Assembly (NCBI GenBank): GCA_029263335.1
Contig: JAJCXS010000147.1
Span: forward strand, 2,682-66,681
Direction: 5' to 3'
DNA from: Acidobacteriota bacterium
GTDB lineage: Bacteria > Acidobacteriota > UBA890 > WLXD01
Length of the DNA stretch: 64,000 nucleotides
In this document: positions 8,235 to 51,365 of the stretch, one piece after another
Numbering within the stretch: position 1 is the stretch's first letter
Layout: each line of letters begins with the position of its first letter
Translations under genes and position numbers: made by a program
Notes under the pieces: model-generated
Databases searched by the model: none
What the model saw: the letters and a program-made list of their open reading frames with translations, nothing else
Told to the model about the DNA's origin: nothing

Positions 8235-8236
8235 GG

Positions 8237-20656: not shown

Positions 20657-20854
20657 CAGGGGGTCCTGTTGATCGTGGATGGGCGGGCTCTCGTTGGTTT
20701 CTGTACATCGTACACTAACTGTCGATGAAAGACTCGGTCGACGTGCGAGGTGGGGTTGCGGAAGATGTGGGGTATGGTGCGGCGCGACGCCAGCAGCCGG
20801 ACAGTTTGGGATAGAGTGCGACGGTTCGTGTCCATTCCTTCTCGCCGAGAGCCC

Positions 20855-22404: not shown

Positions 22405-24519
22405 ATGCAGGCGACGCGGACGACGATTCTGAATGCTGGGGCCGTCGAGCAGAAGCGCGAGGAGATCCGTAAGTACTTCCACGACACTTACGACATCTAC
22501 GAAGAACTCTTCGAGGGCATGGCGGGCGATGCTGCCTACTACCTGCGCCCCGAGCCGCTGCGGCATCCGCTGATCTTCTACTACGGCCACACCGCGGTCT
22601 TCTTCGTCAACAAGCTGCGCGTGGCAGGCATCGTGGACGAGCGTGTCGATGCTCGCATCGAGTCGATGATGGCCATCGGCGTCGACGAGATGTCCTGGGA
22701 CGACCTGGACAAGACCGATTACGACTGGGCGACCGTGGCGGAGGTGAAAGCCTATCGGGACGAGGTCCGCACCCTGGTGGACGGTGTGATCAGCAACTCC
22801 GAGCTGACCCTGCCGATCGACTGGAGCAGCCCCTTCTGGATCGTGATGATGGGCATCGAGCACGAGCGTATTCACCTGGAAACGTCGTCTGTGCTGATCC
22901 GTCAGCTACCCATCGAGAGCGTCCGCCCGATACCGGGTTGGCAGCACTGCCCCGATGCCGGGGAGGCTCCCGAGAACGGTTTGGTCGCGGTCGCGGGCGG
23001 CGGTGTGGCCGTGGGTAAGAGTCGTGAGTCGGCAGTGTACGGGTGGGACATCGAATACGGCGGCCACGAGGCGGAGATCGACGGATTCCAGGCCGGGCGC
23101 CACCTGGTCTCGAACCGCGAATACCGCGCGTTCGTCGAGGACGGTGGCTATGACAACGAGTCGTGGTGGACCGACGAGGGCTGGCGCTGGCGGACCTACA
23201 AGAAGGCCGGCCATCCGCTGTTCTGGATTCCTGACGGCGACGAAGGCTATCGCTATCGCGCCATGCTCGAAGAGATCGACATGCCGTGGAACTGGCCCGT
23301 CGACGTCAACTATCTCGAGGCCAAGGCGTTCTGCAACTGGCTGGGCGCGAGATCGGGCAAGAGCATACGGCTGCCTACCGAAGACGAGTGGTATCTGATG
23401 GCTCAGCGAATTGAAACGGACCAGCCGGACTGGAGCGAAGCTCCCGGCAACATCAACCTGGAGTACTGGGCTTCGGCCTGTCCGGTGGATCGTTTCGAGA
23501 GCGACGGGCTGTTCGACGTGATTGGCAACGTCTGGCAGTGGACCGAGACCGCGATCGACGCCTTGGAAGGCTTCGAGGTGCATCCTGCATACGACGATTT
23601 CTCGGTGCCAACGCTCGACGGCAAACACAACCTGATCAAAGGTGGCTCGTGGGTATCGACTGGCAACGAGGCCACGCGAGACGCGCGCTACGCGTTTCGT
23701 CGTCACTTCCCACAACACGCGGGTTTCCGCTACGTCGAGGCCCCCGAGCCGCCGGCCGTGGAAGCTAACGTGTACGAGACCGACGAGTCGATCTCCGAGT
23801 ATCTGGAGTTCCACTACGGCGATGAGTACTTCGGCGTCGGCAATTTTCCGGCGGCGTGCGTTCGCGAGGTGATGGCGGCGATCGGCGACGCACCCAAACG
23901 TAAGGCGCTCGACATGGGGTGCTCCGTCGGCCGATCGAGCTTTGAACTGGCCCGTGATTTCCAGCATGTCGATGCGTTGGACTTCTCCACGCGGTTCGTG
24001 TTCAGCGCGATCGAGCTGCAGAAGCGCGGCGTTCGGCGGTATGTGATCCGCGACGAAGGCGATCTGATGGCGTATCGCGAGGCTCGTCTGGAAGGGCTCG
24101 GCCTGGCTGAAACTGCCGGCCGCGTCGAGTTCGCTCAGAACGACGCATGCAATCTGAAAACCAACTACACCGGGTACGACCTGATCTTTGCCGCCAACCT
24201 GATCGATCGGCTGTACGATCCCGCTGCGTTTCTGAGGATCGCGCGCGAGCGTCTGGTGCCCGGGGGCTACCTGGCCCTGACTTCGCCCTACACGTGGCTT
24301 GTCGAGCATACGGAAAAGAAGAAATGGCTTGGCGGCATCAAAGAAGACGGCGAGAACGTCACCGGTTTGCAGGGGCTGCACCGGCTTCTCGATGCGCACT
24401 TCGAGACCGTGGGCGAGCCGGTCGATATCCCGTTCGTGATTCGTGAGACCAAGCGTAAGCACCAGCACACGATCGCGGAGTTGACGGTGTGGCGAAGAAG
24501 GTCCGATACGCGCAACTAG
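22405..24519 (+). CDS. ovoA: 5-histidylcysteine sulfoxide synthase OvoA (ovothiol biosynthesis). DinB-like domain, FGE-sulfatase domain and SAM methyltransferase domain.
   Basis: Three-domain architecture typical of OvoA. N-terminal DinB_2-like (YYGHTAVFFVNKL…IEHERIHLE). Central FGE-sulfatase (…GNVWQWTE…KGGSWVS). C-terminal class-I methyltransferase (ALDMGCSVGRSSFELA…YDLIFAANLIDRL). Confidence 0.9.
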   Translation: MQATRTTILNAGAVEQKREEIRKYFHDTYDIYEELFEGMAGDAAYYLRPEPLRHPLIFYYGHTAVFFVNKLRVAGIVDERVDARIESMMAIGVDEMSWDDLDKTDYDWATVAEVKAYRDEVRTLVDGVISNSELTLPIDWSSPFWIVMMGIEHERIHLETSSVLIRQLPIESVRPIPGWQHCPDAGEAPENGLVAVAGGGVAVGKSRESAVYGWDIEYGGHEAEIDGFQAGRHLVSNREYRAFVEDGGYDNESWWTDEGWRWRTYKKAGHPLFWIPDGDEGYRYRAMLEEIDMPWNWPVDVNYLEAKAFCNWLGARSGKSIRLPTEDEWYLMAQRIETDQPDWSEAPGNINLEYWASACPVDRFESDGLFDVIGNVWQWTETAIDALEGFEVHPAYDDFSVPTLDGKHNLIKGGSWVSTGNEATRDARYAFRRHFPQHAGFRYVEAPEPPAVEANVYETDESISEYLEFHYGDEYFGVGNFPAACVREVMAAIGDAPKRKALDMGCSVGRSSFELARDFQHVDALDFSTRFVFSAIELQKRGVRRYVIRDEGDLMAYREARLEGLGLAETAGRVEFAQNDACNLKTNYTGYDLIFAANLIDRLYDPAAFLRIARERLVPGGYLALTSPYTWLVEHTEKKKWLGGIKEDGENVTGLQGLHRLLDAHFETVGEPVDIPFVIRETKRKHQHTIAELTVWRRRSDTRN

Positions 24520-27235: not shown

Positions 27236-27322
27236 TGCCCGCGCGGCACCGGTGACGGCACCGCCTGGCAAGCCATAGAATTTTTCTTGTTCCACGTCGT
27301 CGGCTCGCGTGTCTAACGGGAT

Positions 27323-28009
27323 ATGAGCCCAATTCATGTCCCTCCAGCGGTCCCGGCGAACCAGCCAAACAAGCCAAAGGGCAAGGTGCTGATGTTCCCT
27401 CGTCGGGTGAAATCTCTACGAGATCTCGACGACGAGGCTCTGGTGGGCATGCTGCGCGAGGATCCAGATCGTGAAGACGTCCGCGACGAACTCTTCGGAC
27501 GTTATACGCGCCGTGTCGCCAGTTGGTGTCTGGGCATCGCCCGCACGCCGGAGGAAGCGCAGGACATCGCGCAGGATGTGATGCTGCTGGTCCACCAGCG
27601 GCTGCACACCTTCCGGGTCGAGAGCAAGTTTTCGACGTGGCTGTATACGATCGCCCGCCGTGTGGCACTGAATCGGGCTCGCGCCGGCTCCGTACGCCGA
27701 ACCGAGACGCTCGATCAGATGCCGGAGGCCGCCTCCGAGCGGACCGAACACGCGCCCGAGGAACTCGCGGAGCGGGCGCAGGTACACGAGCGCTTGCGCG
27801 AGGCGATGCGGCGAGATCTCACGGCGCAGGAGGCCGAGATCCTCATTCTGCATTTCGCGCACGGACTGACGTTCGATGAGCTAACGGCCCGCTATCAGTT
27901 GGACAACAAGTCCGGCGCCAAAGCGGTGGTCGTGTCGGCGCGACGCAAACTGGAACGGCGGTTCGGCCGCTGGCTGGAAACACAAACCGGTGGGAGACCC
28001 TGGTCATGA
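27323..28009 (+). CDS. ECF-type sigma-70 factor
   Basis: Region 2 (…RYTRRVASWCLGIARTPEEAQDIAQDVMLLVHQRLHTFRVESKFSTWLYTIARRVA) and region 4 (LTAQEAEILILHFAHGLTFDELTARYQL…AVVVSARRKL). The true start may be an internal Met. Confidence 0.75.
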   Translation: MSPIHVPPAVPANQPNKPKGKVLMFPRRVKSLRDLDDEALVGMLREDPDREDVRDELFGRYTRRVASWCLGIARTPEEAQDIAQDVMLLVHQRLHTFRVESKFSTWLYTIARRVALNRARAGSVRRTETLDQMPEAASERTEHAPEELAERAQVHERLREAMRRDLTAQEAEILILHFAHGLTFDELTARYQLDNKSGAKAVVVSARRKLERRFGRWLETQTGGRPWS

Positions 28010-28719
28010 CGAATCAAACACTGGATAGCCTGATCTCTGACGTCGCGCACCAGCGCCAGCCTCATTGCACGCCTATCGAGATGCTCCACGCCTGGGTAAC
28101 GGGCCAGCTGTCCGAAGACCAGGCCGAGCACGTGCGGACCCATGTGGAAGAGTGTTCGTTCTGCTCGGCCGAGGCGCGGCTTGCGGGCTGGTTCGAGGAC
28201 CCGGCCGCCTCGCCGGCGGTGGACAATCTCGCCGCCCGATTGGCTGGCGGCCAACCACGAAGCGTGGTGCTCGAGTCCGCCGCCGACGTAGCGAGCACGA
28301 GTTGGCGATCGCCCCGGTGGCTGGTGATGGGTCTCGCCGCCGCGGCTACGGTGCTGCTCGTGGTTGGCGCGTACTCAGCGGCTCCGCCGGTGGTTCCCGA
28401 GCTCTTGGACGGACAGGTCGTGCGGGGTGGCACGGTGCATGTACTAGAACCACAGGGAGATGTTTCGGCGATACCCGAGCGCGTAATATGGGAGGGTGGC
28501 TCGGCCGACACGTACCGAGTCGAGTTGCTGGCTGTCGACGGCGAGATTCTGTGGCTGTCGAGTGCGGCGACGGTGGCGGAATTGCCGGCTACGGCCCAGG
28601 ACAAGCTCGAGCGCGGTGTCACCTACCGGGTACGCGTTACGCCGGTCGACAGCGACGGCGAGCTGCTGGGCCGGGCGACGGAAGCCGATTTCAGGATCGA
28701 GAGGCTCCAGATTGAATAG
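28006..28719 (+). CDS. Anti-sigma factor with zf-HC2 motif and one TM helix
   Basis: Overlaps the sigma stop (ATGA). H-x3-C-x2-C (HVRTHVEECSFCSAEARL), then a TM segment (WLVMGLAAAATVLLVVGAY) and a periplasmic beta-rich domain. Confidence 0.6.
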   Translation: MTNQTLDSLISDVAHQRQPHCTPIEMLHAWVTGQLSEDQAEHVRTHVEECSFCSAEARLAGWFEDPAASPAVDNLAARLAGGQPRSVVLESAADVASTSWRSPRWLVMGLAAAATVLLVVGAYSAAPPVVPELLDGQVVRGGTVHVLEPQGDVSAIPERVIWEGGSADTYRVELLAVDGEILWLSSAATVAELPATAQDKLERGVTYRVRVTPVDSDGELLGRATEADFRIERLQIE

Positions 28720-28727
28720 AGCGTCAG

Positions 28728-30047
28728 TTGAATAGGGCGTTGGCGCGGCTACTGCTGACGGCAGTGCTGATGGTCAGCGGACTAGCCATCAGTCCGCCCG
28801 CGAAAGCCATGCGTCCGCCGCTTGTGCTGCGCGTGAACGACGTGGCTGGCAAGGCCGGCTCCATCGTGGCCGTCGTGCTGCGCACTACATCTGCGCGCCC
28901 GATCCGCCAGGGACGGATCTCTGTCCGACCACGTCGCCGCGCGAAGAATCGCCGCGAGTTCCGCGGGCCGTCGCCGTTCATCGGATTGCAGGACTACCGC
29001 GTGCTCTCTTCTGGCAGCAATGACCCACTGGCCGTGGGTGTCTTGCAGGATGACGCCAGGGGGCAGCGGGTTACCCTGCAGTTCACCTCCAACGGTGCTT
29101 CGGTGAATCGCACGGATGGAACGTTGGCGGTGCTCTATCTGCAGCTGCGGGACCGACTCAAGCCGGGCGATCAGTTCGCGCTCGAACTCGAGGACGTGGA
29201 ATTGCTGGACGTCAACGGGCTGCCGCTCCCGCTCGCCCCCTTGGCGGGAGTCTTGAAGGTGCAGGGTGCGCAACGAAAGGCCGAACTTACCGTTGATACG
29301 CGCGACGTAGAGCCGGGTGACGATGCCCGTTTCGGCATCCAGTCGCTGACGCCGCTCCCGCTCGGATCGGGCACCTTCGTGCTCAACTACGATCCCGCGG
29401 TTGCCGCCGAGACACCTCGTGTCTGGCTTAACAAGAAGCAGGGCTCGCGGCGGTCCTCGGTAGACACAAGCGTTCCCGGCAGAATCGAAGTTCAGTTCGA
29501 GTCGCCCGACGGCAACTTCAACGAGATTCCTGGCGAGATCCTCTCGGTCCGCATGGAGACGGTCAAGAACATTGCGCCGGGAAGCCGTGCCGCGATCACC
29601 TTCGACACCGCGGCGACGGTACTCCGCGATCCGGACGGAAACATCGTTCCCTTCCGGATGCGCAACGGTGTCCTGCGCTTTGTCGCGGATGACGACGACG
29701 ATGACGGAGACGACGATGGCGACGACGGCGACGACGGCGACGACGGTGACGACGGTGACGACGGCGATGATGATGACGACGGCGACGATGATGACGACGA
29801 CGATGAAGGGAAGTTTGACGCCATCGCGTTGACCGCCGACGTGGCCACCGGCTTGATCGGTCTGGCGGACGGTACGATCGTCTTGGCCCTGCCGCAGGTG
29901 CAGTGGGAGGACGGCGACTTCACCGACCTGGGTAGTCTCGCCACCGCGATACAGAGTGGTCTGACCGTTCGCGTCCGCGGGGAGGGGACGGCGAACGCCG
30001 AAGGCGCCATCGTGGCCACAGAAATTCGCGCTGAACTCAAAGACTGA
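28728..30047 (+). CDS. Secreted protein with poly-Asp/Gly tract and C-terminal DUF5666-like beta domain
   Basis: Signal peptide (LLLTAVLMVSGLAISPPAKA). A roughly 40-aa pure D/G tract (DDDDDGDDDGDDGDDGDDGDDGDDGDDDDDGDDDDDDDEG) is encoded by GAC/GAT/GGC repeats. The C-terminal block TVRVRGEGTANAEGAIVATEIRAE is paralogous to the repeat unit of the 32711..34261 protein. Confidence 0.6.
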   Translation: MNRALARLLLTAVLMVSGLAISPPAKAMRPPLVLRVNDVAGKAGSIVAVVLRTTSARPIRQGRISVRPRRRAKNRREFRGPSPFIGLQDYRVLSSGSNDPLAVGVLQDDARGQRVTLQFTSNGASVNRTDGTLAVLYLQLRDRLKPGDQFALELEDVELLDVNGLPLPLAPLAGVLKVQGAQRKAELTVDTRDVEPGDDARFGIQSLTPLPLGSGTFVLNYDPAVAAETPRVWLNKKQGSRRSSVDTSVPGRIEVQFESPDGNFNEIPGEILSVRMETVKNIAPGSRAAITFDTAATVLRDPDGNIVPFRMRNGVLRFVADDDDDDGDDDGDDGDDGDDGDDGDDGDDDDDGDDDDDDDEGKFDAIALTADVATGLIGLADGTIVLALPQVQWEDGDFTDLGSLATAIQSGLTVRVRGEGTANAEGAIVATEIRAELKD

Positions 30048-30092
30048 TCGCGGCGCACGGCTCTCAGCATGGGCAGGTGCGGAGCGCTCTGA

Positions 30093-32531
30093 CTAGATTC
30101 GTTGACGCCGGCGAGACCGGCTGGCGAGCCCGGCGCCGGCGAGAACCAGCAGTATCGTTGCGCCCAACTGAAAACGATACCGATGCCATAGCGGCAGACG
30201 CACCGGTTGAGCGTCGCCCACGACGAGGTAGGCCGCCCAGACGTCGGGACGGTTCCCGTAGCCGGCCGCAATGATACGGCGGCGAGCCTCGCGCAGAGCT
30301 TCTGACGCCGGTAGTCCACGCCCCAGAAAGTGATAGAACTGCTGCATGAAGGCGGCGGACTCGGCGTCCCCCACCGCCCATCGCGTGGCCACGACGGCCT
30401 CGGTTCCGGCGGCGATGAACGCACCGGTCAGGCTGTTGAAGGCATCTGCTGTGCGCCCGCCCGACAAGTCGACCGTGCTGCAGGCTGCCAGCACCGTGAG
30501 TTGAACGTCGATCGAGCCGAGCGCGATCTCCTCCTGTCGCAAGAGCCCATCACTGTCCGAAGTAGGGCTGAGCAGGATGGCGCTTGACCCCGGGTCGGAA
30601 TCGACGATGGCGTGCGCGGCGATGTGGAGAACGCTGGGTGATGTAGCGGCCAGTTGCCAGAATGCTCCCTCGGTGGCCTCCGCCCCGGTCCGGATACTCT
30701 CGCTACCACCGCCCAGTTGCCGCTCCGCATCGCGCACTTCGATACTGGCGTGGGGCAGCGGCGTGCTCCAGGTCTCCCAGAGACTGGAGGTCAGCCCCGC
30801 GGGCGCTACTGCGGGCCCGAGCGGCTGGGCCAGTGCCGCGAAGTTCCGAGCTTTGTGCGGCAGCGCAGTACGCGCCAGAAAAGAACCGCTTGGCCAATAG
30901 GTCAACGCCGCGTCGACGCCAAGAGGTCTCTCGGGCGTGCCCAGCATCGCGAAAGGCAGTCCATGCAGAAACCCGTCCGTTGCGATGTGTAGTCGGCTTG
31001 CCGGGGCCTCCGTGCCGACGAGACGCGTGCCGACACTGCGTCGCAGATCGAGCGCGGGCTCTCCGCGTTGAATGCGCGCGATCAACGTTCTGACCGACCG
31101 CTTCAGCGAGGTGGGTTCAGGTAGCGCGGTCACCTCAATCGAACCCGCACGAATCAGCCATCGCCAGGTGTCGTTCTCGTCGATGAAGTACTCGATCAGG
31201 GCCTCATCCTGGGCGAGGACTCCCTGAATCGTGTCCAGTCGCCGAACGCGGCGGCGTGTTTCCGGCTGCGGCAGAGCGTCGAGCAGACTCCGCGACTTGG
31301 CGCGTTGAATGACGTCGAAGGCGCGGGCGAACAGATGAGGTTCGTCAGTCAGCGCCCGCTCCGTCCATAGCCGATGCGCTGTCTCGTAGACCTCACGCTG
31401 AGAGTTGAGGAAGGTGGCGCGAAGCACCAGATCGGGGGCGCTGGCGCGACTTGTCTCCAGTAGCGCGAGGGCGGCTTCGAGATGACCGTCCACGTCGCCA
31501 TCGTTCCCCATCGCGTGCCGCAACCGGGCGAGGAGGGCGTGTGCCGACCACTGCGCGTCCGGGCTGCCAACCTCCTCGGCGACGGCAAGGGCAGCGGCTG
31601 CTGCTTCCAGGGCACGCCTGTTGTGACCCGCCGCCTCATAGCTCCGGGCCTGCTGATAGAGCGCCCGCGCCTCTTCGGGTCGATCGCGTTGTTGCCGTGC
31701 GATATCGATCGCCTCGGTGGCGTCGGCGATGCTGGCTTGGATGTCACCGCGGAGTCGCTGCGCGACGGCGCGATTAACGGCGATCGACGCGGCGGCGCCC
31801 TCGTCCGGCGCAAGGGAATCGAGTTCTCGCAGCGAGCGCCCTGGGTCGCCCAGTGCCGCATACAGAGCGGCGCGGTTGATGTGGATCTCCAGGCCATACT
31901 CGGGCAGCGTTGCGAGCGTGTCGTCATCGAGCAGATCGAAGGCTCCACGCAGGTCGCCGAGGTCCATCAGCAGAACGGCCCGATTGACGCGCGCGATCGC
32001 TACCTGTCGCTGGAACCACTCATCCTGGCTGTCCCGTGCGCGCTCCTCGACGGCTCGATATTGCTGCGAGGCGGCCCCGAATCGGCCGAGCTCGGTAAGC
32101 ACAGCCCCGAGGTTCGATCGCGTCATGGCTTCGAGCTCGGGCGAATCATCGGCCAGCGTGAGCGCAAGAGCTTCGCTCAGGGCTCGTTCGGCGGGTTCCA
32201 GTTCGCCCAGCGATTGCAGTGCCAGCGCGAGGTTGTTGCGGTTGTCCGCTACAAGTTCCGCTTCGCCATCATCGGCCAGCAGTTGCTCTGCCAGCCGGCA
32301 GCGGTCCAGTGCTTCCTGGTAACGCTCCAGGTCGACCAAGATCGCACAGGCGTTGTTGTGGGCGATCGCCTGATCGACGGGGTCCGCCAGTTCCTGTAAG
32401 GCGAGGTCGTACTCGCTCAGCGCCGCTTCGATATTGCCAGCGACATGAAGTTCGATGGCGTTGTCGAGACGCTCCACCTGCCCGGCAGGCAATAGCGCCA
32501 GGGCGCCGAGTGCCAGAGCCGGCAGGCTCAT
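30093..32531 (-). CDS. TPR-repeat + CHAT-domain (caspase-like) protein
   Basis: Signal peptide, then about 10 TPR-like helical repeats (…AIAHNNACAILVDLERYQEALDRCRLAEQLL…). C-terminal CHAT domain with His/Cys dyad context (VLHIAAHAIV…QLTVLAACSTV). Confidence 0.8.
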   Translation of the reverse strand: MSLPALALGALALLPAGQVERLDNAIELHVAGNIEAALSEYDLALQELADPVDQAIAHNNACAILVDLERYQEALDRCRLAEQLLADDGEAELVADNRNNLALALQSLGELEPAERALSEALALTLADDSPELEAMTRSNLGAVLTELGRFGAASQQYRAVEERARDSQDEWFQRQVAIARVNRAVLLMDLGDLRGAFDLLDDDTLATLPEYGLEIHINRAALYAALGDPGRSLRELDSLAPDEGAAASIAVNRAVAQRLRGDIQASIADATEAIDIARQQRDRPEEARALYQQARSYEAAGHNRRALEAAAAALAVAEEVGSPDAQWSAHALLARLRHAMGNDGDVDGHLEAALALLETSRASAPDLVLRATFLNSQREVYETAHRLWTERALTDEPHLFARAFDVIQRAKSRSLLDALPQPETRRRVRRLDTIQGVLAQDEALIEYFIDENDTWRWLIRAGSIEVTALPEPTSLKRSVRTLIARIQRGEPALDLRRSVGTRLVGTEAPASRLHIATDGFLHGLPFAMLGTPERPLGVDAALTYWPSGSFLARTALPHKARNFAALAQPLGPAVAPAGLTSSLWETWSTPLPHASIEVRDAERQLGGGSESIRTGAEATEGAFWQLAATSPSVLHIAAHAIVDSDPGSSAILLSPTSDSDGLLRQEEIALGSIDVQLTVLAACSTVDLSGGRTADAFNSLTGAFIAAGTEAVVATRWAVGDAESAAFMQQFYHFLGRGLPASEALREARRRIIAAGYGNRPDVWAAYLVVGDAQPVRLPLWHRYRFQLGATILLVLAGAGLASRSRRRQRI

Positions 32532-32710
32532 CTGACCCTCCTGAGCGTAGGCGGCGATGCGATGCTTTGACGATATCAGAGCAGCGAGTGCCTACGGACG
32601 TAGCGGCCTGGGCGACCAACCTGCACCAACGGAGAACGGGGCCGCACAGCGCCCCAACGGACGCTGTGCGACCCCGATCTGTACGCCGACAGGAAGGTCC
32701 GGCGCTAGAT

Positions 32711-34261
32711 CTAATCGCGAATCTCGACACTCGCCTGTAGTTGCCAGGCGCTGCCATCCAGGAACGTACCGCTGACGGTCACGGTTGTCCTGTCACCATC
32801 TGATAGGTCGGCGACGAGCTGGATTGCGGCCGCCTTGGAGAACTCGGCTCTCAGGTCGCTTGAGCCGAAGCGGGTGTCGACGGGAGCGATGGACAGGCCG
32901 TTCCGGCCCATACGGATGCTGGCGACGTCGATCAGGCGCCAGTCGCCGTCATCGATGCGGACCTCGAGGGTGCTACCGCCGCTGCCGGAGTTGGACCCGG
33001 AGGCCCAGTCCAGACGCCACTCGTCCGGGTCGAGACGGAGGCTCATCAGATCGTCGTCGTCATCACCGTCGTCGTCATCATCGTCATCACCGTCGTCATC
33101 GTCGTCGTCACCGTCACCGTCATCGTCATCGTCATCGTCCGCGTCGTCATCATCATCGGCGTCGTCATCACCGTCGTCGTCATCACCGTCGTCGCCGCCG
33201 GTGTTGTCGGTTTCGGCCTTGATCGCGGTGGCCAGGATGCGGCCGTCAAGCTGCTCGTCGCCGTTGCCTTCAACGCGCGATGGCGTGCCGGCCGTCACGG
33301 CCTGATCCAGGGCGTCGAGCGAGAAGACGTCGCCAAGTCCGTCCCAGATCGTCGAGCTATCGACCACCACCGTAGTGCCATTCGTGAGCATGACGGAGCT
33401 GCCGGGCACGTTCACACTACCGACGGTACCGCTGAACTGCCGGGAGGTGCCGATGACCGTGTCGGTTTCGGCCTTGATCGTCGTGGCCAGAACGCGGCCG
33501 TCGAGCTGCTCGTTGCCGTCGCCCTCGATACGTGTTGGTGTGCCTGCCGCCACAGCTTGAGCCAGGGCGTCGAGCGACAAGATGTCGCCAAGTCCGTCCC
33601 AAACCGTCGTGGCGTCCACCACCACCGTCGTGCCGTCGGTGAGCTGGACAGAGCTGCCAGGCACATCGACGCTGCCGACAGCGCCGTCGAACTGCCGGGC
33701 GGCGCCGACAAACTCAGTGGTCTCTGCCTTGAGGTCGGTGGCAAGCAACGAGCCGTCGGCGCGCACGTTCGCGGTGCCTTCAATGCGGACGTCGGCGCCG
33801 CGGCCGAGCGCGTCATCTACCGCACCGAGGTCGAACACATCACCGAGAGCATCCCAGCGCGTCGTGCCGTCTACGAAGATCGACGTTCCCGTCGTCAGGA
33901 CCAGCGCAGAAGCGGCGCTGTCCACGCGAGCCACAGCGCCAGCGAAGGTCTGGCTTGCGCCGCCTCCGCCGGATGAGTCGTTGCCCGTCGAGGTGTTGCT
34001 CGAATTCAGGAGATCGAGGTTGGGGGCGGTAGGATCGCTCGATGCGCTACAGCCGACGAGGGACAGGATGCCCAGCATCAGGGCCAAGCGAACAGAGAGT
34101 TTAGGAGTGCGTGTCACGATGGAACTCCAGCTGCGGCTCTGGGATTGGTGGGAGCGGCCGTCAGGGGATAGGACACGCGATACGGCCGGGCCGGAACACA
34201 AATCGACTGAACTGGAGGCATCCGGGGACAGCCCTGGCCACAGGCCTCGCCGCACAGGCAA
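32711..34261 (-). CDS. Secreted protein with three tandem ~85-aa beta-rich (DUF5666-like) repeats, a poly-Asp/Gly tract and a C-terminal domain
   Basis: Signal/lipoprotein-like N-terminus (LGILSLVGCSAS). Three repeats (F.G.VGSV.VPGSSV.LT.GTTVVVD..T.WDGLGD..SLDAL.QAV.AGTP.R.EG.G.EQLDGR.LAT.IKAETD). A roughly 55-aa D/G tract follows (GGDDGDDDDGDDDADDDDDADDDDDDDGDGDDDDDDGDDDDDDDGDDDDD). Confidence 0.65.
   Translation of the reverse strand: MPVRRGLWPGLSPDASSSVDLCSGPAVSRVLSPDGRSHQSQSRSWSSIVTRTPKLSVRLALMLGILSLVGCSASSDPTAPNLDLLNSSNTSTGNDSSGGGGASQTFAGAVARVDSAASALVLTTGTSIFVDGTTRWDALGDVFDLGAVDDALGRGADVRIEGTANVRADGSLLATDLKAETTEFVGAARQFDGAVGSVDVPGSSVQLTDGTTVVVDATTVWDGLGDILSLDALAQAVAAGTPTRIEGDGNEQLDGRVLATTIKAETDTVIGTSRQFSGTVGSVNVPGSSVMLTNGTTVVVDSSTIWDGLGDVFSLDALDQAVTAGTPSRVEGNGDEQLDGRILATAIKAETDNTGGDDGDDDDGDDDADDDDDADDDDDDDGDGDDDDDDGDDDDDDDGDDDDDLMSLRLDPDEWRLDWASGSNSGSGGSTLEVRIDDGDWRLIDVASIRMGRNGLSIAPVDTRFGSSDLRAEFSKAAAIQLVADLSDGDRTTVTVSGTFLDGSAWQLQASVEIRD
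33195..33950. repeat. Three tandem ~255-nt coding repeats inside the 32711..34261 gene
   Basis: Near-identical nucleotide blocks recur about 252-255 nt apart (e.g. gtgtcggtttcggccttgatcg(c/t)…gcggccgtc(a/g)agctgctcgt), matching the protein-level repeats. Confidence 0.6.
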
Positions 34262-34300: not shown

Positions 34301-36682
34301 CTACAGGGGAGCCAGTGTCAGCGTCGTATTGCCCATGCGCAACATCAGTTCACCGCTAGCGGAATCCACCGTGTACCAGGGGTGGCCATCGCCGCTGTCG
34401 GGCGAACCCAGCGTCATCATCTGCACGAACCAGCGGTGCAGCGTTTCGCCGAACGAGTCTTCGGGCAGCGTGGCGCGGTTGAAGCGATAGATCACACGTT
34501 GCAGCACGACTGCCGCGGGGCCGCTGATGCCACCCATGGCTTCGAACCATGTCTTGTCGAGCTTGAGGAAGAACTTGTGGTTGGTGGTGAAGAAGTCGCC
34601 CTGGTCCTCCCGCGAGGTCTTGAGCGGCACCCACCAGCGCCCTTCGAACTCCTCGGGCTCCTTGTCCTCGTCCACCTCGAAGCCAAGCTCCACAAAGCCG
34701 CGGAACACCGCGTTCTTCTTGACGTAGTCGCGAATGAGATCGGCGCTCACGTTCACGCGCTCGCTCAACGATTCAGCCGGGATCAGGCCGTCGTAGGTAG
34801 CGTCCTCGAACTCGAACCAGACATTGTTGGCGCTGAGCCGCATCTTCTCGGGTCCTTCGCGCAGCAGCTCCAGATCGCCGGTGATGTCGACCTCTGTATC
34901 GCCCACGCGGATCGTCTTGCCGCGCATTTCAGAGGGCAGAGTACAGACGAGGATTCTCGGACTCAGGGTGCGCGCAGGATCCTTGTTCGAAAGCACCAGG
35001 TCGATCCGGTTGGTCGGAGGTAGCGGGCTGCCTTGTTGGCAGGCCTGGCTGCTGTTCGAGAAGCACAGCAGATTGGCGGCGTCGGTGCTCAGGCTGAGCG
35101 ACTGCTCGGCCGGGTGCAGCGCCGCAGACCACTCGAAACCGCTCGTGTCGCCCGCCGTCAGGCCGAAGCTGGCCCGCAAGTAGAGCTGGTCTGGTTGGGC
35201 GGGCAGGTCGATGCTGATGCGCAGCGCCGATACTTCGGGTAGTTCGAAGCTCTCCGGGTCGGCGCAGTACGGGTCGCGGTCAACCGCGAAGGCGCCGCGC
35301 GCGGACAGCGACCAATGATCCGGAAAAGCGGGCGTGTCGGTGAAGCGCCTCCACGGATCGCGGTGCAGCAGGTGTTTGGCGTGGTCGTGCCAGTTGCCAT
35401 CCAAATCGATGGCAGCCAGCGCCGCCTGGTTGTTGCCCGACTGCAGATGGGCCTGGAGCACAGCCTGCACTCGATACAGGCCATCGGTCGCTTCGAGGTC
35501 GTGCCACAACATGTGCACCGGATACTCGAGCGTCATGATGCCCAGAGGTGCCTTCAGAAAGAAGGTGCGCATGGCGCGGTGATAGATGTTCTCGCCTGTG
35601 ACCGTCGACAGCGGATTCTGCCCAGTGACCTTCTTCGCGCCCCAGTCGGCGAGCGATTCCGTTAACCATCTGTACGGGGTCTCGAACGGCACCTGGCGTA
35701 GCTGGTAGTGGAACGCGTGGAACATCTCGTGGGCAAGCGTGTGGGCGCGGATCGATGACCACGGGGTGTTTGTGCCCGAGGACGCGGAGGTGGGGTCGAG
35801 GCTCATGTAGATGATCGACTTCCCAGGCCCTTGGTACTTGTGTACGCCGCCGGAGCTGGTTCCCGTGCCGGAGGCGATGGCCTCGGTGAAGGCGACCACG
35901 ATGCTCTCCGGTCCCAGAGCTGACGGCGAGGTCTGAAACAGAGCCAGGTAGCGCGACCAGGCTTCCTGGATCACCGGGATCGCCGCGTAGACCTCCGACT
36001 GCACCGCGATGGCGTTCAGGGCGCTCGTCGATTGCGGCCAGATCATCGTTACGTTCTGGTTGAGTTGCTGCCAACAATGCTGGGCCGCGGACGCCGTGAT
36101 CGCGTAACCGCTGACGTTGCCCGTTGGTGGAAACCACAGGCTTCCTTCCTGTGGACAGCTCTGCGCCGTTGCCGCGGAGACGCGCAGGGTCGCGAAGCTC
36201 GATGAGGCCAGGCTGGCGGCGGCTTGCGACCGCGTGCCCGGAGAGGATCGTGCGCCAGGAAAGAACGGGTGGTCGGGATGCCACCAGGGCAGGCGCCAGA
36301 TCCCCAGTTCCGCGTCTTCACGGTCCGTGATGTCGAGAATCGCCTCGATATCGTCGAGGACATGGTCCGATTCGGACTCTCCCTCGCCCAGGCGGTACCG
36401 GCTCGGTGGCGCCTCGCCCCAGCCGAAAGCGCGGTGCAACCGATAGCGAACGTACTCGCCTGGCGCAACGTCGCCCACGGACAGAGCTTCCTGCAGGAGC
36501 GCGGCGGTGGTCGGTTCGGGTTCGGCAGCGCGATCAAAGCCGCCGCCAGCGGCTTCGCCAAGAGGGTCCATCGAGATCGGCCAGTTCGGCCCCTCGGCCG
36601 CGGCACCGCAACCCGCGCCCAACCATGGAACGAGGACCATCCCTAACACTCCGATGCGGCGTAGCGGGTGCCGGTTTCTCAC
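34301..36682 (-). CDS. Lipoprotein, putative zinc metallopeptidase (HExxH)
   Basis: Lipobox (VPWLGAGCGAA). Zincin motif HTLAHEMFHAFHY. Large protein with no further recognisable domains. Confidence 0.55.
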   Translation of the reverse strand: MRNRHPLRRIGVLGMVLVPWLGAGCGAAAEGPNWPISMDPLGEAAGGGFDRAAEPEPTTAALLQEALSVGDVAPGEYVRYRLHRAFGWGEAPPSRYRLGEGESESDHVLDDIEAILDITDREDAELGIWRLPWWHPDHPFFPGARSSPGTRSQAAASLASSSFATLRVSAATAQSCPQEGSLWFPPTGNVSGYAITASAAQHCWQQLNQNVTMIWPQSTSALNAIAVQSEVYAAIPVIQEAWSRYLALFQTSPSALGPESIVVAFTEAIASGTGTSSGGVHKYQGPGKSIIYMSLDPTSASSGTNTPWSSIRAHTLAHEMFHAFHYQLRQVPFETPYRWLTESLADWGAKKVTGQNPLSTVTGENIYHRAMRTFFLKAPLGIMTLEYPVHMLWHDLEATDGLYRVQAVLQAHLQSGNNQAALAAIDLDGNWHDHAKHLLHRDPWRRFTDTPAFPDHWSLSARGAFAVDRDPYCADPESFELPEVSALRISIDLPAQPDQLYLRASFGLTAGDTSGFEWSAALHPAEQSLSLSTDAANLLCFSNSSQACQQGSPLPPTNRIDLVLSNKDPARTLSPRILVCTLPSEMRGKTIRVGDTEVDITGDLELLREGPEKMRLSANNVWFEFEDATYDGLIPAESLSERVNVSADLIRDYVKKNAVFRGFVELGFEVDEDKEPEEFEGRWWVPLKTSREDQGDFFTTNHKFFLKLDKTWFEAMGGISGPAAVVLQRVIYRFNRATLPEDSFGETLHRWFVQMMTLGSPDSGDGHPWYTVDSASGELMLRMGNTTLTLAPL

Positions 36683-36704: not shown

Positions 36705-38057
36705 TCAGATCCAGTAGCGCATGAGCAAGGCGGTTGCCGTTACAGCCCCACTCAACACGCCGTAAGCGGGCACGCCTGTTCGCAGTATCCGGTCCCGGGC
36801 CGCGGGTTCGAAAACTCTCGCGCCGATTGGCTGCAGCACGGATACTCCAACCATCGCGGCCAGCGGCACCAAGGGAATGAGATAACGGCCCACCAGCCCG
36901 ATCACCCAGGCGTTGCCTACCGGAGTGAAGGTCACGTACAGGGCACCGCCGATGATCGCCAGGGTGCCGGCACAAATCGCGGCGAGCCCCGCGATTTGTG
37001 CACCGCTCAGGCGATAGGCGCGCCGCGCCAATAGCGGAGACAGAGCCAATAGCACCAATGAAAGCACCTTGAAACTTGCGGGTAACCGCGTGTCGAGACT
37101 ACCAAGGTGGCCCACGACCTGGCTGAGGACCGACCCCCAGTACAGACTCAGCGTCTGCCAGGCGACCGACAGCCCCAGAAACGGGTTGGTGACGAGCTGC
37201 TCGAGTTGGACGCGCGGGTCCACTCCCGCGGGCAGGGGGAAGCCGGTGACTCCAGCTAGCCAAAAACTACTCATGGCGACTTGCACCACCGCGAACCCGC
37301 CCAACCATTTCCACCTTTGCTGCGGGTGACCCCAACGAGCAGCCGGAACTACGAGGATCGCCCATGGCAGTAGCCAATACCCCAGCTTCGTTAGAGAAAC
37401 TCCGATCGCGAGCAGGAAGTAGCCGGCGAGCTTCTTATTGTCGGCAACCTCCGAATTCTCGAGCTGCTGCGCTACCCAGGCGACCAGCAAGAAGCCGAGG
37501 CTGAGCGTTATCGCGTCGGCCGACAGACTGGCCATCTGAGTTACCACGGTGGGGAACAGAGCCAGTACGGCGAGTGTTGGTGCCAGCGAATCGCTCATGC
37601 GGAGCGAAACGCCGAGCAGCAGTGTGCCGATGAGCAGGTTGACCAGACGGCCCAGGTACATCAGCGCCAGCGGTCGCGGAGCGAACGGCTCGACAACCAC
37701 CATGGCGATCGCCGGGCCGAGATGGTTGATCGGCGGGTAGAGGGCGGCGGCGCCGAACGCGGCGAGGCTTTCGTCGTCGTCGATTCGCAGCTGCCACGCG
37801 TCGCTCAACAACTCGGGCGGATACTCGAGTTCGGGTCGGTGCCGGATTCCTCCGGTCGCCGTCTCGGCGAAGTCCACAATCGCCCGAGGCAGATAGTCCC
37901 TGCCCGAGCGGTCCGTGAAGCCACCGTGGCCAATCGAGTAGGCACGCAGGAAGTGCACAGGCTCGTCCGGCGGCTGCAACGGAGGGGTCAGGACCCCCGC
38001 ACTGATCCCGCACAGAAAGAAGATGCACTGGACTACGAGTCGCTCTCGGGCGTTCAT
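36705..38057 (-). CDS. Polytopic membrane protein, DUF2142-like (putative glycosyl/arabinosyl-transferase-like)
   Basis: About 11 predicted TM helices. N-terminal periplasmic loop with the PDExxHFxRAYxIxxG pattern typical of DUF2142. Adjacent to a GT2 gene. Confidence 0.5.
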   Translation of the reverse strand: MNARERLVVQCIFFLCGISAGVLTPPLQPPDEPVHFLRAYSIGHGGFTDRSGRDYLPRAIVDFAETATGGIRHRPELEYPPELLSDAWQLRIDDDESLAAFGAAALYPPINHLGPAIAMVVVEPFAPRPLALMYLGRLVNLLIGTLLLGVSLRMSDSLAPTLAVLALFPTVVTQMASLSADAITLSLGFLLVAWVAQQLENSEVADNKKLAGYFLLAIGVSLTKLGYWLLPWAILVVPAARWGHPQQRWKWLGGFAVVQVAMSSFWLAGVTGFPLPAGVDPRVQLEQLVTNPFLGLSVAWQTLSLYWGSVLSQVVGHLGSLDTRLPASFKVLSLVLLALSPLLARRAYRLSGAQIAGLAAICAGTLAIIGGALYVTFTPVGNAWVIGLVGRYLIPLVPLAAMVGVSVLQPIGARVFEPAARDRILRTGVPAYGVLSGAVTATALLMRYWI

Positions 38058-38774
38058 TCAGCGCCGCACTCCCGCTGCCAACAGAAAGAACGGTCGCATG
38101 ATCGACCACCAGTCCAATACCGGGCGGATCTTCGAGAGCCTACCTTTGCCGAGGTGACCGTACTCGATGGTCACGGATACTTCCACGATGCGCAGTTTCT
38201 GTCGGCAGACCCAGAAGTGGATGTAGTGCTCTAACTCGTACTGATTCAGCCACGATTGGTGCAGGTTGATCTGCGGCGACTCGAAGATGTCCAAGCGGTA
38301 AGCGCGGTACCCGCAGGTGATGTCGGTGTTGTCGTGAGCCGTGAGTCGGTTGGCGATCCATGTCGCGATGGGAATCGCGAAGCGGCGAAACCTCGGCAGG
38401 TCGCCGCCGGGGTCGGCTTTCAGGAAACGGCTGCCCTGCACGTAGTCCGCGTTGCCCTCGGTGATCGGTGCCGTGATGGCGGGCAGCTCTTCGGGGCGCA
38501 TCTTGCCGTTGGACGACATGATCACCACGAAGTCGTAGTCGTGTGCCACCGCGTGGTCGATCCCGGTGCGGATAGCGGCCCCGACGCCACGATTCGTTCC
38601 GTGTCGCAGTACGGCAACGCCCATTGCCTCTGCGAGCTCGGGTGACCCATCTGTCGAGCCGTCATCGACCAGGACGGCGTCGAGGCCACGTGCCGCGTGC
38701 GCGCGCAACCGCGTCAGGAACCGTTCGATCTCGAGAGCCTGGTCGTAATTGACGACAACAACGAGGCCCCGCAT
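38058..38774 (-). CDS. Family-2 glycosyltransferase (polyprenyl-phosphate sugar transferase-like)
   Basis: GT-A fold motifs: VVVVNYDQ, VLVDDGSTDGS, and the DxD-like DYDFVVIMSSNG. Confidence 0.8.
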   Translation of the reverse strand: MRGLVVVVNYDQALEIERFLTRLRAHAARGLDAVLVDDGSTDGSPELAEAMGVAVLRHGTNRGVGAAIRTGIDHAVAHDYDFVVIMSSNGKMRPEELPAITAPITEGNADYVQGSRFLKADPGGDLPRFRRFAIPIATWIANRLTAHDNTDITCGYRAYRLDIFESPQINLHQSWLNQYELEHYIHFWVCRQKLRIVEVSVTIEYGHLGKGRLSKIRPVLDWWSIMRPFFLLAAGVRR

Positions 38775-39397
38775 CAGGTATTCGCGCCCGATGCGGAATC
38801 GCCGGGGTGGTTCTCAGTGATGACGGCGCGTGCCAGAGCAACGACCTCCGGCTCGAGCTTCTCGTGACAGCAGTCGCGCAGCAGCTCAGCCGGGCGCGTG
38901 CCCAGAGGCATCTGGGTCTCGCCACAGCTGCACAGCATCTTGTTGGCCTTAACACCCGATCCGAAGCCGACCGCCAGGTGAAATGGCGGCACCGAATGCG
39001 TGAGGACGGTTCCTGCGCCCACCATCGCGAAGGCCCCCACGGTGACGCCGCAGGTGATGATCGCGCCGGCGCCGATGGCCGCGCCAGCGTGCACGAAAGT
39101 TGAAACGGGTTGCCACGAGCGGGTGCCCGCACGCGGGTAGCGATCGTTGGTGAACACAACGGCCGGGCCGATGAACGCCCAGGGCCCAATCTCCACACCC
39201 GCGTACACATTGACGCTGTTCTGGATACGACTGCCCTCACGAATCGTCACGCCAGGGTCGACGTACACATCGCGCCCGAGAGACACGCGATCACAGACTT
39301 TCGCCGTGGCGCGTACGTGGCAGTGATGCCAGATGGTGACGTCGCGTCCGATCTCCGCACCGTCTTCGATAATCGCGGTCGGGTGGATTCGTGTCAT
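38774..39397 (-). CDS. Left-handed beta-helix (hexapeptide-repeat) sugar N-acetyl/acyltransferase
   Basis: Consecutive hexapeptide repeats (IHPTAIIEDGAEIGRDVTIWHHCHVRATAKVCDRVSLGRDVYV…GAAIGAGAIITCGVTVGAFAMVGAGTVL). Start taken at the Met of MTRIHPTAII. The track ORF extends to 39517. Confidence 0.75.
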   Translation of the reverse strand: MTRIHPTAIIEDGAEIGRDVTIWHHCHVRATAKVCDRVSLGRDVYVDPGVTIREGSRIQNSVNVYAGVEIGPWAFIGPAVVFTNDRYPRAGTRSWQPVSTFVHAGAAIGAGAIITCGVTVGAFAMVGAGTVLTHSVPPFHLAVGFGSGVKANKMLCSCGETQMPLGTRPAELLRDCCHEKLEPEVVALARAVITENHPGDSASGANT

Positions 39398-39561
39398 CGG
39401 CACTCCGGGCGCGGAGGACAGATTTCGCAGCGTATCAGGCTCGCGGCCCGCGGGGGGGGGAGCTGCCTCGATAACGGTCGGCGTTATGCCAGCGGCGGCG
39501 CAAGACACTACGATCAAGAGACTACGATGAGGAATCGAGGGCCGCTGGCGAAACTGGAGAG

Positions 39562-51116: not shown

Positions 51117-51365
51117 TTGCAGTCGCTGGAGGGCAGGGGAACCGGGTCCGACGGGCTCGGTCTTGGTGGGATGGTCTCAGTAGAAGAGTGCCGGGCACTT
51201 ATTAGAAGCTCTGGGCTGCAGGGACGCGAATTCTCGGACGATGAGATCCGAGAACTACGCGATCATCTCGCCGAGCTCACGCGCCTACTGCTGACCGCTG
51301 CCCCTCCGGCGGCGGTACGTGCGACGGACAAGACAACGACGTCTCCGGAGACTTGCGATGGCTAG
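51117..51365 (+). CDS. Small hypothetical protein immediately upstream of the recombinase (possible regulator/excision factor)
   Basis: 82-aa ORF ending 8 nt into the recombinase start. No motif assigned. Confidence 0.25.
   Translation: MQSLEGRGTGSDGLGLGGMVSVEECRALIRSSGLQGREFSDDEIRELRDHLAELTRLLLTAAPPAAVRATDKTTTSPETCDG

Follow-up and report, generated by a model that had tools for sequence, protein, structure and literature searches.

RESULTS

Gene organization of the locus

The region described here lies within a 64,000-nucleotide stretch of DNA (the window) from an Acidobacteriota bacterium and contains five genes, which we interpret as a putative extracytoplasmic signaling module together with part of its regulon. 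The open reading frame (ORF) map and family scans confirmed the genes that an earlier, sequence-only reading of the window (the original prediction) had placed there: those for a sigma factor of the extracytoplasmic function (ECF) type, an anti-sigma factor, a secreted protein (pD1), a TPR-CHAT protein, and a second exported protein (pD2) (Table 1). The strand assigned to pD2 had to be corrected, however; the gene lies on the minus strand, in the same direction as the CHAT gene and upstream of it, and therefore the region consists of two convergent units. The sigma, anti-sigma and pD1 genes, separated by very short overlaps or gaps, are predicted to be co-transcribed. The pD2 protein probably starts at GTG 34117, and by its lipobox (LVG-C23) it is predicted to be a lipoprotein.

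The product of the first gene matched Sigma70_r2 (E = 1.1e-14) and TIGR02937 (70.9 bits against a cut-off of 42.9; E = 9e-20) and is assigned by these matches to the ECF (group IV) sigma factors, having only regions sigma-2 and sigma-4. The zf-HC2 match of the second product fell just below the cut-off (21.0 versus 22.2 bits; E = 3.6e-4); the zinc motif, C21/H46/C50/C53 (C-x24-H-x3-C-x2-C), is nevertheless present and is conserved in homologs (alignment of 51). A single transmembrane (TM) helix, read from the hydropathy of the sequence at residues ~105 to 126, is conserved in the same 51 homologs and is followed by a periplasmic domain of approximately 100 amino acids (aa). The protein is accordingly classified, on its sequence features, as a single-pass zinc (CHCC) anti-sigma factor. 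At least 90% of the 51 homologs, zinc-type proteins and the receiver-type variants described below alike, keep a juxtamembrane arginine, Arg140 (in VVRGG).

Table 1. Coordinates and properties of features in the window (upper part) and in related loci and proteins (lower part; handles beginning with L denote loci, those with P proteins)
Feature	Position	Strand	Remarks
ECF-type promoter of the sigma operon	27288..27314	+	-35 TGTTCC 27288-27293, 16-nt spacer, -10 TGTCT 27310-27314
ECF sigma gene	27323-28009	+	228 aa; ORF map and family scan
Anti-sigma gene	28006-28719	+	237 aa; 4-nt overlap with the sigma stop
Anti-sigma TM helix	28318-28383	+	hydropathy
Anti-sigma periplasmic domain	28384-28716	+	~100 aa
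pD1 gene	28728-30047	+	439 aa, secreted; starts 8 nt past the anti-sigma stop
pD1 signal peptide	28728-28808	+	
pD1 cohesin-fold module 1	~28818-29267	+	AF2 model, Foldseek
pD1 cohesin-fold module 2	~29280-29684	+	AF2 model, Foldseek
pD1 Asp/Gly tract	29685-29810	+	composition
pD1 DUF5666 (OB-like) domain	29811-30044	+	homology to pD2 repeats and DUF5666 copies
TPR-CHAT gene	30093-32531	-	812 aa; CHAT E 3.8e-47
CHAT protein, C-terminal TM helix	~30120-30173	-	followed by RSRRRQRI
CHAT domain	30213-31013	-	residues 507-773, PF12770
Cys684	30480-30482	-	invariant in 41/41 orthologs
His640	30612-30614	-	invariant in 41/41 orthologs
CHAT protein, TPR region	~31332-32360	-	TPR family matches
pD2	ORF 32711-34261	-	516 aa as ORF; likely 468 aa, 32711..34117
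pD2 C-terminal domain	32714-33049	-	~110 aa, clade-specific
pD2 Asp/Gly tract	33050-33199	-	composition
pD2 DUF5666 domains	33713-33949, 33458-33694, 33203-33439	-	three in tandem
ECF promoter motif, second copy, upstream of pD2	34171..34198	-	TGTTCC, 17-nt spacer, TGTCC; exact match
Receiver-type anti-sigma variants	L006 8853-9974, L007 9078-9968, L009 8977-9882, L012 6657-7583		
Receiver-type anti-sigma variants	L016 1-954, L031 100-1158, L052 8703-9896, L054 6467-7516		
Second sigma/anti-sigma pair, examples	L015 13617-14972, L022 13505-14690, L023 13599-14658, L034 13401-14481, L056 13895-15135		
Cohesin-dyad homologs, L004 and L005			C-terminal tails of ~62 and 55 Asp
Cohesin-dyad homologs, L006, L007, L009; proteins P0113, P0110			DSDTD-type tails
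DUF5666 lipoproteins, L010 and L017			(DS/DT)n linkers
DUF5666 lipoproteins, L013, L025, L036, L041, L042			linkers rich in D, G, R and N
P0091			two DUF5666 domains, acidic tracts between them and at the end
L031 protein	6890-9388		~95 consecutive Asp between two Calx-beta-type repeat units (type read from sequence)

Conservation of the module and exchange of its cytoplasmic domain

Conservation was surveyed with the pD1 family as the anchor: a genome scan with an alignment of the family, here termed the cohesin dyad after its predicted fold (see below), yielded 53 loci and was followed by tblastn and iterated hidden Markov models. Taxon labels, taken from the titles of metagenome-assembled genomes, placed nearly all of these loci in Thermoanaerobaculia/Acidobacteriota, with one in Gammaproteobacteria and one in Holophagales. 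Two close relatives, L002 and L003, have CHAT proteins 78% and 74% identical to that of the window and the same arrangement, including both acidic tracts. Among the 50 loci with enough upstream sequence, 46 have an anti-sigma-type gene and 39 have an orthologous sigma gene (45 to 54% identity) in the same position. Downstream, a convergent TPR-CHAT gene lies within 9 kb of the cohesin-dyad gene in 35 of the 45 loci with enough sequence, and in 28 it is directly adjacent.

The claim that these genes form one functional neighborhood is thus borne out by conservation in 2 close and 53 distant loci. What is conserved, however, is not what the original prediction put at the center. By this comparison the core comprises an ECF sigma gene, a zinc anti-sigma gene, and a gene for a secreted protein with two cohesin folds, facing a convergent TPR-CHAT gene; the poly-Asp proteins as such are not its hub.

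In eight loci, a receiver domain (PF00072) replaces the zinc domain of the anti-sigma-type protein, while the TM helix and periplasmic domain are kept (Table 1); E values ranged from 6e-15 to 2e-21 in the three proteins scanned (L007, L012 and L031). These loci have neither a sigma gene nor the promoter motif described below, yet they keep the cohesin dyad and the TPR-CHAT gene. Just upstream, L007 has genes for a methyl-accepting chemotaxis protein, a HEAT-repeat protein, CheR and CheB, which were confirmed, and L009 has a similar set as judged by ORF size and order only. Because the exchange retains all three, it suggests that the periplasmic domain, the cohesin protein and the TPR-CHAT protein act as one extracytoplasmic unit with an exchangeable cytoplasmic output, and we regard this as the strongest comparative argument available from the survey.

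In approximately 14 loci there is also a second, different ECF sigma/anti-sigma pair, divergent from the TPR-CHAT gene (examples in Table 1). It occupies the place held in other loci by a DUF5666 lipoprotein gene.

The TPR-CHAT protein

The CHAT domain was recognized with a wide margin (PF12770, 161.6 bits against a cut-off of 24; E = 3.8e-47). A PDB search with the single CHAT protein sequence returned TPR proteins only, and a profile of the orthologous CHAT domains was needed to reach the protease DdvA of Myxococcus xanthus, which was then the best match (8rot_B, E = 6e-10), followed by Csx29 (E ~7e-4) and separase (E = 0.04). In this alignment, H640 and C684 correspond to DdvA H862 and to the cysteine of its LAAC motif (C907). 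Scans of metagenome contigs with the CHAT protein and with the clade alignment gave distant matches only and no close relatives.

Nearly all CHAT orthologs have a signal-like hydrophobic segment at the N terminus and a TM helix with an Arg-rich tail at the C terminus. The positive-inside rule orients this helix with its tail in the cytoplasm, and because of these terminal segments and the Arg-rich tail the TPR-CHAT protein is predicted to be periplasmic and tethered to the inner membrane.

The conservation pattern of the CHAT domain bears on the residue that it might recognize. Thirteen columns are at least 85% acidic, compared with four that are at least 85% basic; two of the latter, R750 and R752, lie in the far C-terminal part, and the window protein has Trp and His at the other two. 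There are 54 residues that are kept in at least 93% of orthologs, with no Arg or Lys among them. Read against what is generally known of caspase-fold proteases, such conserved acidic columns point to a basic P1 residue in the substrate, which would fit better than Asp.

The promoter and the predicted regulon

A dyad search of the regions upstream of the sigma genes identified TGTTCC-N16-TGTC[TC] in 40 of 42 orthologous regions, compared with a maximum of 11 in shuffled sequences. The spacer is 16 to 17 nt and measures 16 nt in all but two of the 40; in the window, the promoter of the sigma operon is the sole exact N16 match. An in-frame ATG or GTG stands 6 to 11 nt past the -10 element in 31 of the 40 loci, and in the window ATG 27323 stands 8 nt past TGTCT; because of this short distance, the sigma mRNA is probably leaderless or nearly so. 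The start that gives a sigma factor of 228 aa is preferred over the later one chosen by the gene caller on a sister contig (205 aa).

Across the approximately 1 Mb of the loci there are 67 exact matches to the promoter, whereas we estimate that about 3 would be expected, and nearly all of them lie upstream of genes for sigma factors, DUF5666 proteins, cohesin dyads or Calx-beta proteins. Wherever a DUF5666 lipoprotein gene adjoins a module CHAT gene (L010, L013, L017, L025, L036, L041 and L042), it has the motif upstream, and so do several stand-alone cohesin-dyad genes. The copy upstream of pD2 is located 53 nt before GTG 34117, and in L002 and L003 the motif is kept, with an N16 spacer, amid diverged flanks. 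Since they share this promoter motif, pD2 and pD1 (the latter through co-transcription with the sigma gene) are predicted to be transcriptional outputs of the sigma factor; we infer the dependence of the promoter on the module's own sigma factor from these sequence patterns. In the regions upstream of the CHAT genes, none of the dyads exceeded the level in shuffled sequences, and a near match to the sigma motif occurred in just 1 of 36 regions. Because its genes are without the sigma promoter motif, the CHAT protease looks like a constitutive sensor component.

The motif was also observed before genes for Calx-beta proteins, with motif positions of 3794 in L015, 6600 in L021, 4406 in L034, 6586 in L046, 6558 in L056 and 7918 in L040. 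These proteins are secreted and approximately 520 aa long (390 aa in L040), and their domains are joined by Gly/Asp-rich linkers. The assignment was made with Pfam for the L056 protein (PF03160, E = 1.4e-74; three matched stretches in the 400 residues scanned) and by near-identical repeat sequences for the others. In several loci approximately 1.7 kb separates the Calx-beta gene from the sigma promoter downstream of it; we saw no such gene in the window.

The cohesin-fold protein pD1

The body of pD1 (residues 28 to 319) matched no Pfam family, Cohesin included. It has 38 homologs with 32 to 39% identity over nearly the full length, which are secreted proteins of 330 to 365 aa, likewise without a Pfam domain. 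An AF2 model built from the alignment of these homologs (pLDDT 87.4) matched a cohesin dyad, 3l8q, in Foldseek (E = 2e-14), and single cohesins superimposed on the individual modules with TM scores of 0.76 to 0.83 and root mean square deviations of 2.0 to 2.3 Å at 21% identity. The modeled body is thus best described as a cohesin-fold dyad of an unannotated family. We do not class it with the cellulosomal cohesins, because there was no Pfam Cohesin match and because no dockerin-like sequence was found in any core module protein, either by reading the sequences or with Pfam. The family is small, since HMMER retrieved only 171 members at E <=1e-30 from among 1.84 billion cluster representatives.

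Most cohesin-dyad homologs stop where pD1 enters its Asp tract and have neither an acidic tail nor a DUF5666 domain; in others there is an acidic tail at the C terminus, or else a domain of approximately 100 aa that contains Cys. Comparison of these architectures indicates that in the window clade a DUF5666 domain was added behind the acidic tail of the cohesin protein. In L019, L023, L033, L034 and L046, two tandem cohesin-dyad paralogs are located between the anti-sigma and CHAT genes.

The DUF5666 domains of pD1 and pD2

A domain shared by pD1 and pD2 had been predicted and recommended for comparison with Pfam, including DUF5666, as a repeat of about 85 aa. We found it as a unit of approximately 79 aa, with one copy in pD1 and three in pD2 (BLASTP E values of 1e-10 to 2e-7): residues 362 to 436 of pD1 match pD2 units 109 to 180, 190 to 265 and 275 to 350 at 32 to 34% identity. 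Whole pD2 scored 26.0 bits against the DUF5666 model (PF18914), for which the cut-off is 27, and 12 of 16 homologous repeat copies matched that family individually (best E, 2.8e-8). The repeat is accordingly assigned to DUF5666, a family without a characterized role; the window copies are weak matches but clearly homologous to copies that pass. No function was assigned to DUF5666 in the literature searched, where it received passing mentions only. Neither of the two outcomes that had been named in advance as fatal to the original prediction, an unconserved neighborhood or a repeat of known, unrelated role, was therefore obtained. The view that pD1 and pD2 are paralogs holds for the tract and the DUF5666 domain but not for the 290-aa body of pD1, which is the cohesin dyad.

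Repeats 2 and 3 of pD2 form a 255-nt tandem duplication (33205-33708, minus strand; 80% DNA match). Because only two DUF5666 repeats are found in the L002 and L003 orthologs, the third repeat appears to have arisen recently in the lineage of the window.

An AF2 model of one DUF5666 repeat (pLDDT 97.6) is a barrel with the order b1-b2-b3-helix-b4-b5. Its matches in the PDB were all weak (E ~0.1), and they included RPA14/32, the N-domain of LysRS and enterotoxin B subunits, which we take to be OB-fold or small-barrel proteins. With modest confidence, the modeled domain is considered OB-like. Pairwise hhalign comparisons among the pD2 C-terminal domain, the anti-sigma periplasmic domain, the cohesin dyad and DUF5666 gave probabilities of <=1%.

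The acidic tracts

Both Asp/Gly tracts that had been reported were found, the pD1 tract having 42 residues (320 to 361: 31 D, 9 G, 1 A and 1 E) and the pD2 tract 50 residues (355 to 404: 40 D, 8 G and 2 A). An assembly artifact was ruled out because an independent assembly, L001, which differs by 7 mismatches in 9,925 nt, has identical tract lengths. A DNA microsatellite origin was also ruled out, as the mixture of GAC and GAT is imperfect (72 to 76% unit matches) and the codon ratio is like that of neighboring genes. The reading frame is intact through the tracts in the L002 and L003 orthologs. Among these close relatives the position of each tract is kept while length and composition drift; for example, the D/G tract of pD2 in the window corresponds to D/S in L002 and to D/G/T in L003.

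Acidic tails and linkers of several kinds recur in other exported proteins of the survey (Table 1). Because they are variable, and absent at most loci, they appear from these comparisons to be accessory, that is, fast-evolving, flexible anionic linkers or tails of exported regulon proteins in some lineages, and not part of the conserved core. Among exported bacterial proteins, runs of 42 to approximately 95 Asp residues are in themselves unusual, and an assay of their Ca2+ binding would be cheap; binding of Ca2+ or minerals, as suggested in the original prediction, is a putative property of the tracts.

Near the module in L012 (2-1195) and L054 (2-1156), we also observed genes for proteins with tandem DxDxDG repeats, of the thrombospondin type 3 kind as judged by reading the sequence, which end in approximately 70 Asp and have no Pfam match. 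Such a protein could, from its repeats, be a dockerin-like partner of the cohesin dyad.

Neighboring genes

Upstream of pD2 is the gene for a 793-aa protein (34301-36682, minus strand) with an HEMFH (HExxH) motif, which may be a zinc metalloprotease; it had no Pfam, NCBIfam or PADLOC match. The gene is missing from the orthologous locus L002, where CotH, DUF4956 and VTC genes are found upstream instead. It is followed in the window (36705-39517, minus strand) by genes for a DUF2142 membrane protein, a family-2 glycosyltransferase and a hexapeptide transferase, which resemble a surface-glycan cluster. The 793-aa gene, the DUF2142 gene and the rest of the glycan-like cluster are not conserved together with the module.

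On the other side, a LanC-like protein gene (20750-22252, plus strand) adjoins a gene for a 704-aa fusion of DinB, FGE-sulfatase and methyltransferase domains (22405-24519, plus strand), an architecture that resembles the ovothiol synthase OvoA, and a sortilin/BNR gene then precedes the module. Farther away, a tricorn-type protease (10320-13652, plus strand; PD40, Tricorn C1/PDZ and S41 domains) carries an Asp/Ala-rich insert at ORF residues ~564 to 610 (DADADADADADTDED), which is the third acidic low-complexity tract of the window. The presence of a mobile element approximately 17 kb away from the module may be indicated by a large serine recombinase with Resolvase and Recombinase domains (51319-52515, plus strand).

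DISCUSSION

In this study, we have described a conserved gene neighborhood in which an ECF sigma factor, a membrane-spanning anti-sigma factor, a secreted cohesin-fold protein and a TPR-CHAT protein occur together. The descriptive part of this account, namely the composition of the module, its conservation, its intact catalytic pair and the promoter that its genes share, appears from the comparisons made here to be very secure. We postulate that the region is an extracytoplasmic signaling module, with part of its regulon, that is triggered by proteolysis, and give this interpretation as a whole a probability of about 0.5.

The proposed mechanism is as follows. The periplasmic domain of the anti-sigma factor, the cohesin-dyad protein and the TPR-CHAT protein would jointly form the sensor, in which the cohesin dyad would be a co-sensor or gatekeeper. 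Upon receipt of a signal, the CHAT protein would act as a site-1 protease and cut the anti-sigma factor, or the receiver-type protein in the variant loci, outside the membrane; the candidate cut site is the conserved juxtamembrane Arg140 of the anti-sigma factor or, for a cut that would come first, the Arg-rich loop of the cohesin protein at residues 66 to 85 of pD1. Intramembrane proteolysis would follow and release the sigma factor, which would then raise expression of its own operon and of the exported, beta-rich surface proteins. The step from the protease to the anti-sigma factor is tentative, with odds that we put at even or somewhat below.

Such a mechanism is reminiscent of that proposed for DdvA/DdvS of M. 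xanthus, except that here the TPR-CHAT protein would be a separate polypeptide acting in trans. The authors of that study proposed that the CHAT domain cuts outside the membrane and that RseP acts afterward, and they found fused TPR-CHAT anti-sigma factors only in Myxococcota and in one Comamonas (PMC11506125). In both systems an ECF sigma factor is held by a single-pass CHCC zinc anti-sigma factor, and a TPR-CHAT domain with a homologous His/Cys pair is located in the periplasm, as predicted here from sequence. Unlike DdvA, in which the TPR-CHAT region is fused to the anti-sigma factor in one 991-aa chain that would cut itself, the two proteins are separate and encoded on opposite strands, both here and at all related loci; the 812-aa TPR-CHAT protein has its own membrane anchor, and the outer domain of the anti-sigma factor is only approximately 100 aa long. 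Further differences are the constant presence of a cohesin-dyad protein as an additional partner, a predicted regulon that consists of surface proteins and not of CBASS/CRISPR genes, and the lineage, which is Acidobacteriota. The module shares homologous parts with the DdvA type, and probably its logic as well, but not the fusion that defines it.

It is well established that in the RseA/DegS/RseP pathway a periplasmic site-1 protease cuts a single-pass anti-sigma factor, an intramembrane protease follows, and sigma-E is released. The proteolytic logic proposed here is the same; however, DegS is a PDZ serine protease and not a caspase-fold TPR-CHAT protein, and that pathway has no cohesin-type partner. 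This proteolysis of sigma-E is summarized in the study of the type III-E craspase, in which the TPR-CHAT protein Csx29 cleaves Csx30, an inhibitor of the ECF-type sigma factor CASP-sigma (PMC10028731). The craspase resembles our proposal in that a TPR-CHAT protein acts in trans against a sigma inhibitor encoded nearby, and the CHAT profile does match Csx29. In contrast to the protease predicted here to be periplasmic, however, the craspase is cytoplasmic, is activated by RNA-guided Cas7-11 and involves no membrane step. A search for the associated components (Cas7-11/gRAMP, Csx30/Csx31) gave no CRISPR-associated match, PADLOC returned a weak TPR match only, and the neighboring genes are unrelated. 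Likewise, the tandem cohesin-fold beta-sandwiches of pD1 resemble those of cellulosomal dyads such as ScaA from Acetivibrio cellulolyticus (3l8q), but the pD1 family has no Pfam Cohesin match and no dockerin partner that we could find, and it occurs in a Gram-negative Acidobacteriota host within a sigma/anti-sigma operon. Because of the missing CRISPR genes, on the one hand, and the missing dockerin and Pfam cohesin match, on the other, we conclude that the module is neither a craspase nor a cellulosomal system.

Several observations weigh against the protease-triggered model. The link between the CHAT protein and the anti-sigma factor or the cohesin protein is inferred solely from gene adjacency and covariation. 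Export of the CHAT protein of the window was predicted from hydropathy judged by eye, and its N-terminal segment (MSLPALALGALALLPAGQ) is without a basic n-region. No CHAT gene lies within 9 kb in 7 of the 45 loci, cohesin-dyad genes stand alone in L004, L005 and L028, and a survey anchored on the cohesin family does not give the fraction of such CHAT or sigma genes that lack the module. Furthermore, in the window clade the CHAT gene is only 179 nt downstream of pD2, and because a terminator-like site was not found in this gap, the CHAT protein could there be an output as well as a sensor through read-through from pD2. Finally, the predicted -35 element is TGTTCC and not the GGAAC common to ECF promoters, and the strand call depends on the fixed distance to the start codon.

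Three other explanations have to be considered. In the first, which is close to the original prediction, the CHAT protein would have no role in sigma activation and would instead mature or release the exported proteins of the regulon. Its cuts in pD1 and pD2 might, for instance, fall at the poly-Asp linkers or next to them, in the way that caspases cleave after Asp. The CHAT gene is indeed located between pD1 and pD2, and in other loci a cohesin gene and a DUF5666 gene flank it; the neighboring exported proteins repeatedly contain acidic linkers; and a common transcript with pD2 is possible for the CHAT gene in the window clade. At most loci where CHAT is retained, the cohesin proteins nevertheless have no acidic tract, and a DUF5666 neighbor is present in only 7 of 53 loci. 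The prevalence of acidic over basic conserved columns in the CHAT domain (13 versus 4), with no strongly kept Arg or Lys, points to a basic P1 residue and not to Asp, given what is generally known of the caspase fold; cleavage within poly-Asp is thus unlikely to be the conserved job of this protein. In addition, the replacement of the zinc domain by a receiver keeps the CHAT protein with a transmembrane signaling protein, and the CHAT genes are without the sigma promoter. We therefore consider substrate processing improbable as the primary role.

Alternatively, the cohesin-dyad protein may itself be the center of the system, an anchor or scaffold that assembles an adhesive structure or a matrix by binding partners of the dockerin-like or Ca2+-loop kind, with an ordinary envelope-stress sigma factor and a CHAT protein that is only loosely linked. 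The strong fold match to cellulosomal cohesin dyads, the presence of Calx-beta proteins (PF03160, E = 1.4e-74) and OB-like lipoproteins in the regulon, the DxDxDG-repeat, poly-Asp-tailed protein near the module in L012 and L054, and acidic tracts that could bind Ca2+ are all compatible with this idea. It does not readily accommodate the core module proteins, which have no dockerin-like sequence, or the frequency of adjacent convergent CHAT genes (28 of 45 loci), which is too high for loose linkage; moreover, the anti-sigma periplasmic domain co-varies with the cohesin and CHAT genes across the domain exchange, and the cohesin family is small (171 cluster representatives at E <=1e-30 among 1.84 billion). 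A scaffold of this kind seems to us slightly less probable even than substrate processing. It can also be envisioned that the module senses phage attack in the periplasm and turns on anti-phage genes in the manner of DdvA/DdvS, since DdvA, its nearest solved CHAT relative, regulates a CBASS/CRISPR island and TPR-CHAT proteases are frequent in defense systems. The genes with the sigma promoter encode exported structural proteins and not defense systems, however; the PADLOC models gave a weak TPR match only, and the ORFs examined (window, 20 to 40 kb) included no CRISPR or CBASS gene. A defense switch is accordingly very improbable.

We return to the protease-triggered module as the preferred interpretation. 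It may be extended to a new architecture, in which a tethered periplasmic TPR-CHAT protein serves in trans as a signal-gated site-1 protease, the cytoplasmic end is swappable (zinc/ECF sigma or receiver/Che-like), the cohesin dyad is an obligatory co-sensor or a securin-like gatekeeper, and the poly-Asp tails tune the system via Ca2+ or surface charge; in this full form the proposal is speculative and on balance doubtful. The original prediction held that the arrangement had not been described as such, and no description of the sigma/anti-sigma/cohesin/TPR-CHAT arrangement was found in the literature searched, in which DdvA was the only periplasmic TPR-CHAT protein. The main text of the ECF classification paper (PMC7826278) does not mention CHAT, caspases or cohesins. 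A 2021 survey reported caspase systems that include an ECF sigma factor along with a TPR protein, but these are of a different type (DUF1822/EACC2).

The split organization of this module may prove useful experimentally. Self-cleavage of DdvA was not testable in its own system, where the signal is unknown and the protease and substrate are one chain (PMC11506125), whereas here the protease and its candidate substrates could be mixed in vitro and mutated independently. The results also provide a first functional context for two unannotated families, the cohesin dyad and DUF5666, the latter as an OB-like lipoprotein domain; in this lineage, the lipoproteins that contain it have long acidic linkers and an ECF promoter, and in one case the domain follows a cohesin dyad in a fusion. 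For an uncultured class of Acidobacteriota (Thermoanaerobaculia), they predict a promoter and a small regulon. Finally, the occurrence of a zinc/sigma or a receiver output on the same periplasmic domain suggests that these bacteria may carry a modular sensor that has been plugged into two signaling pathways.

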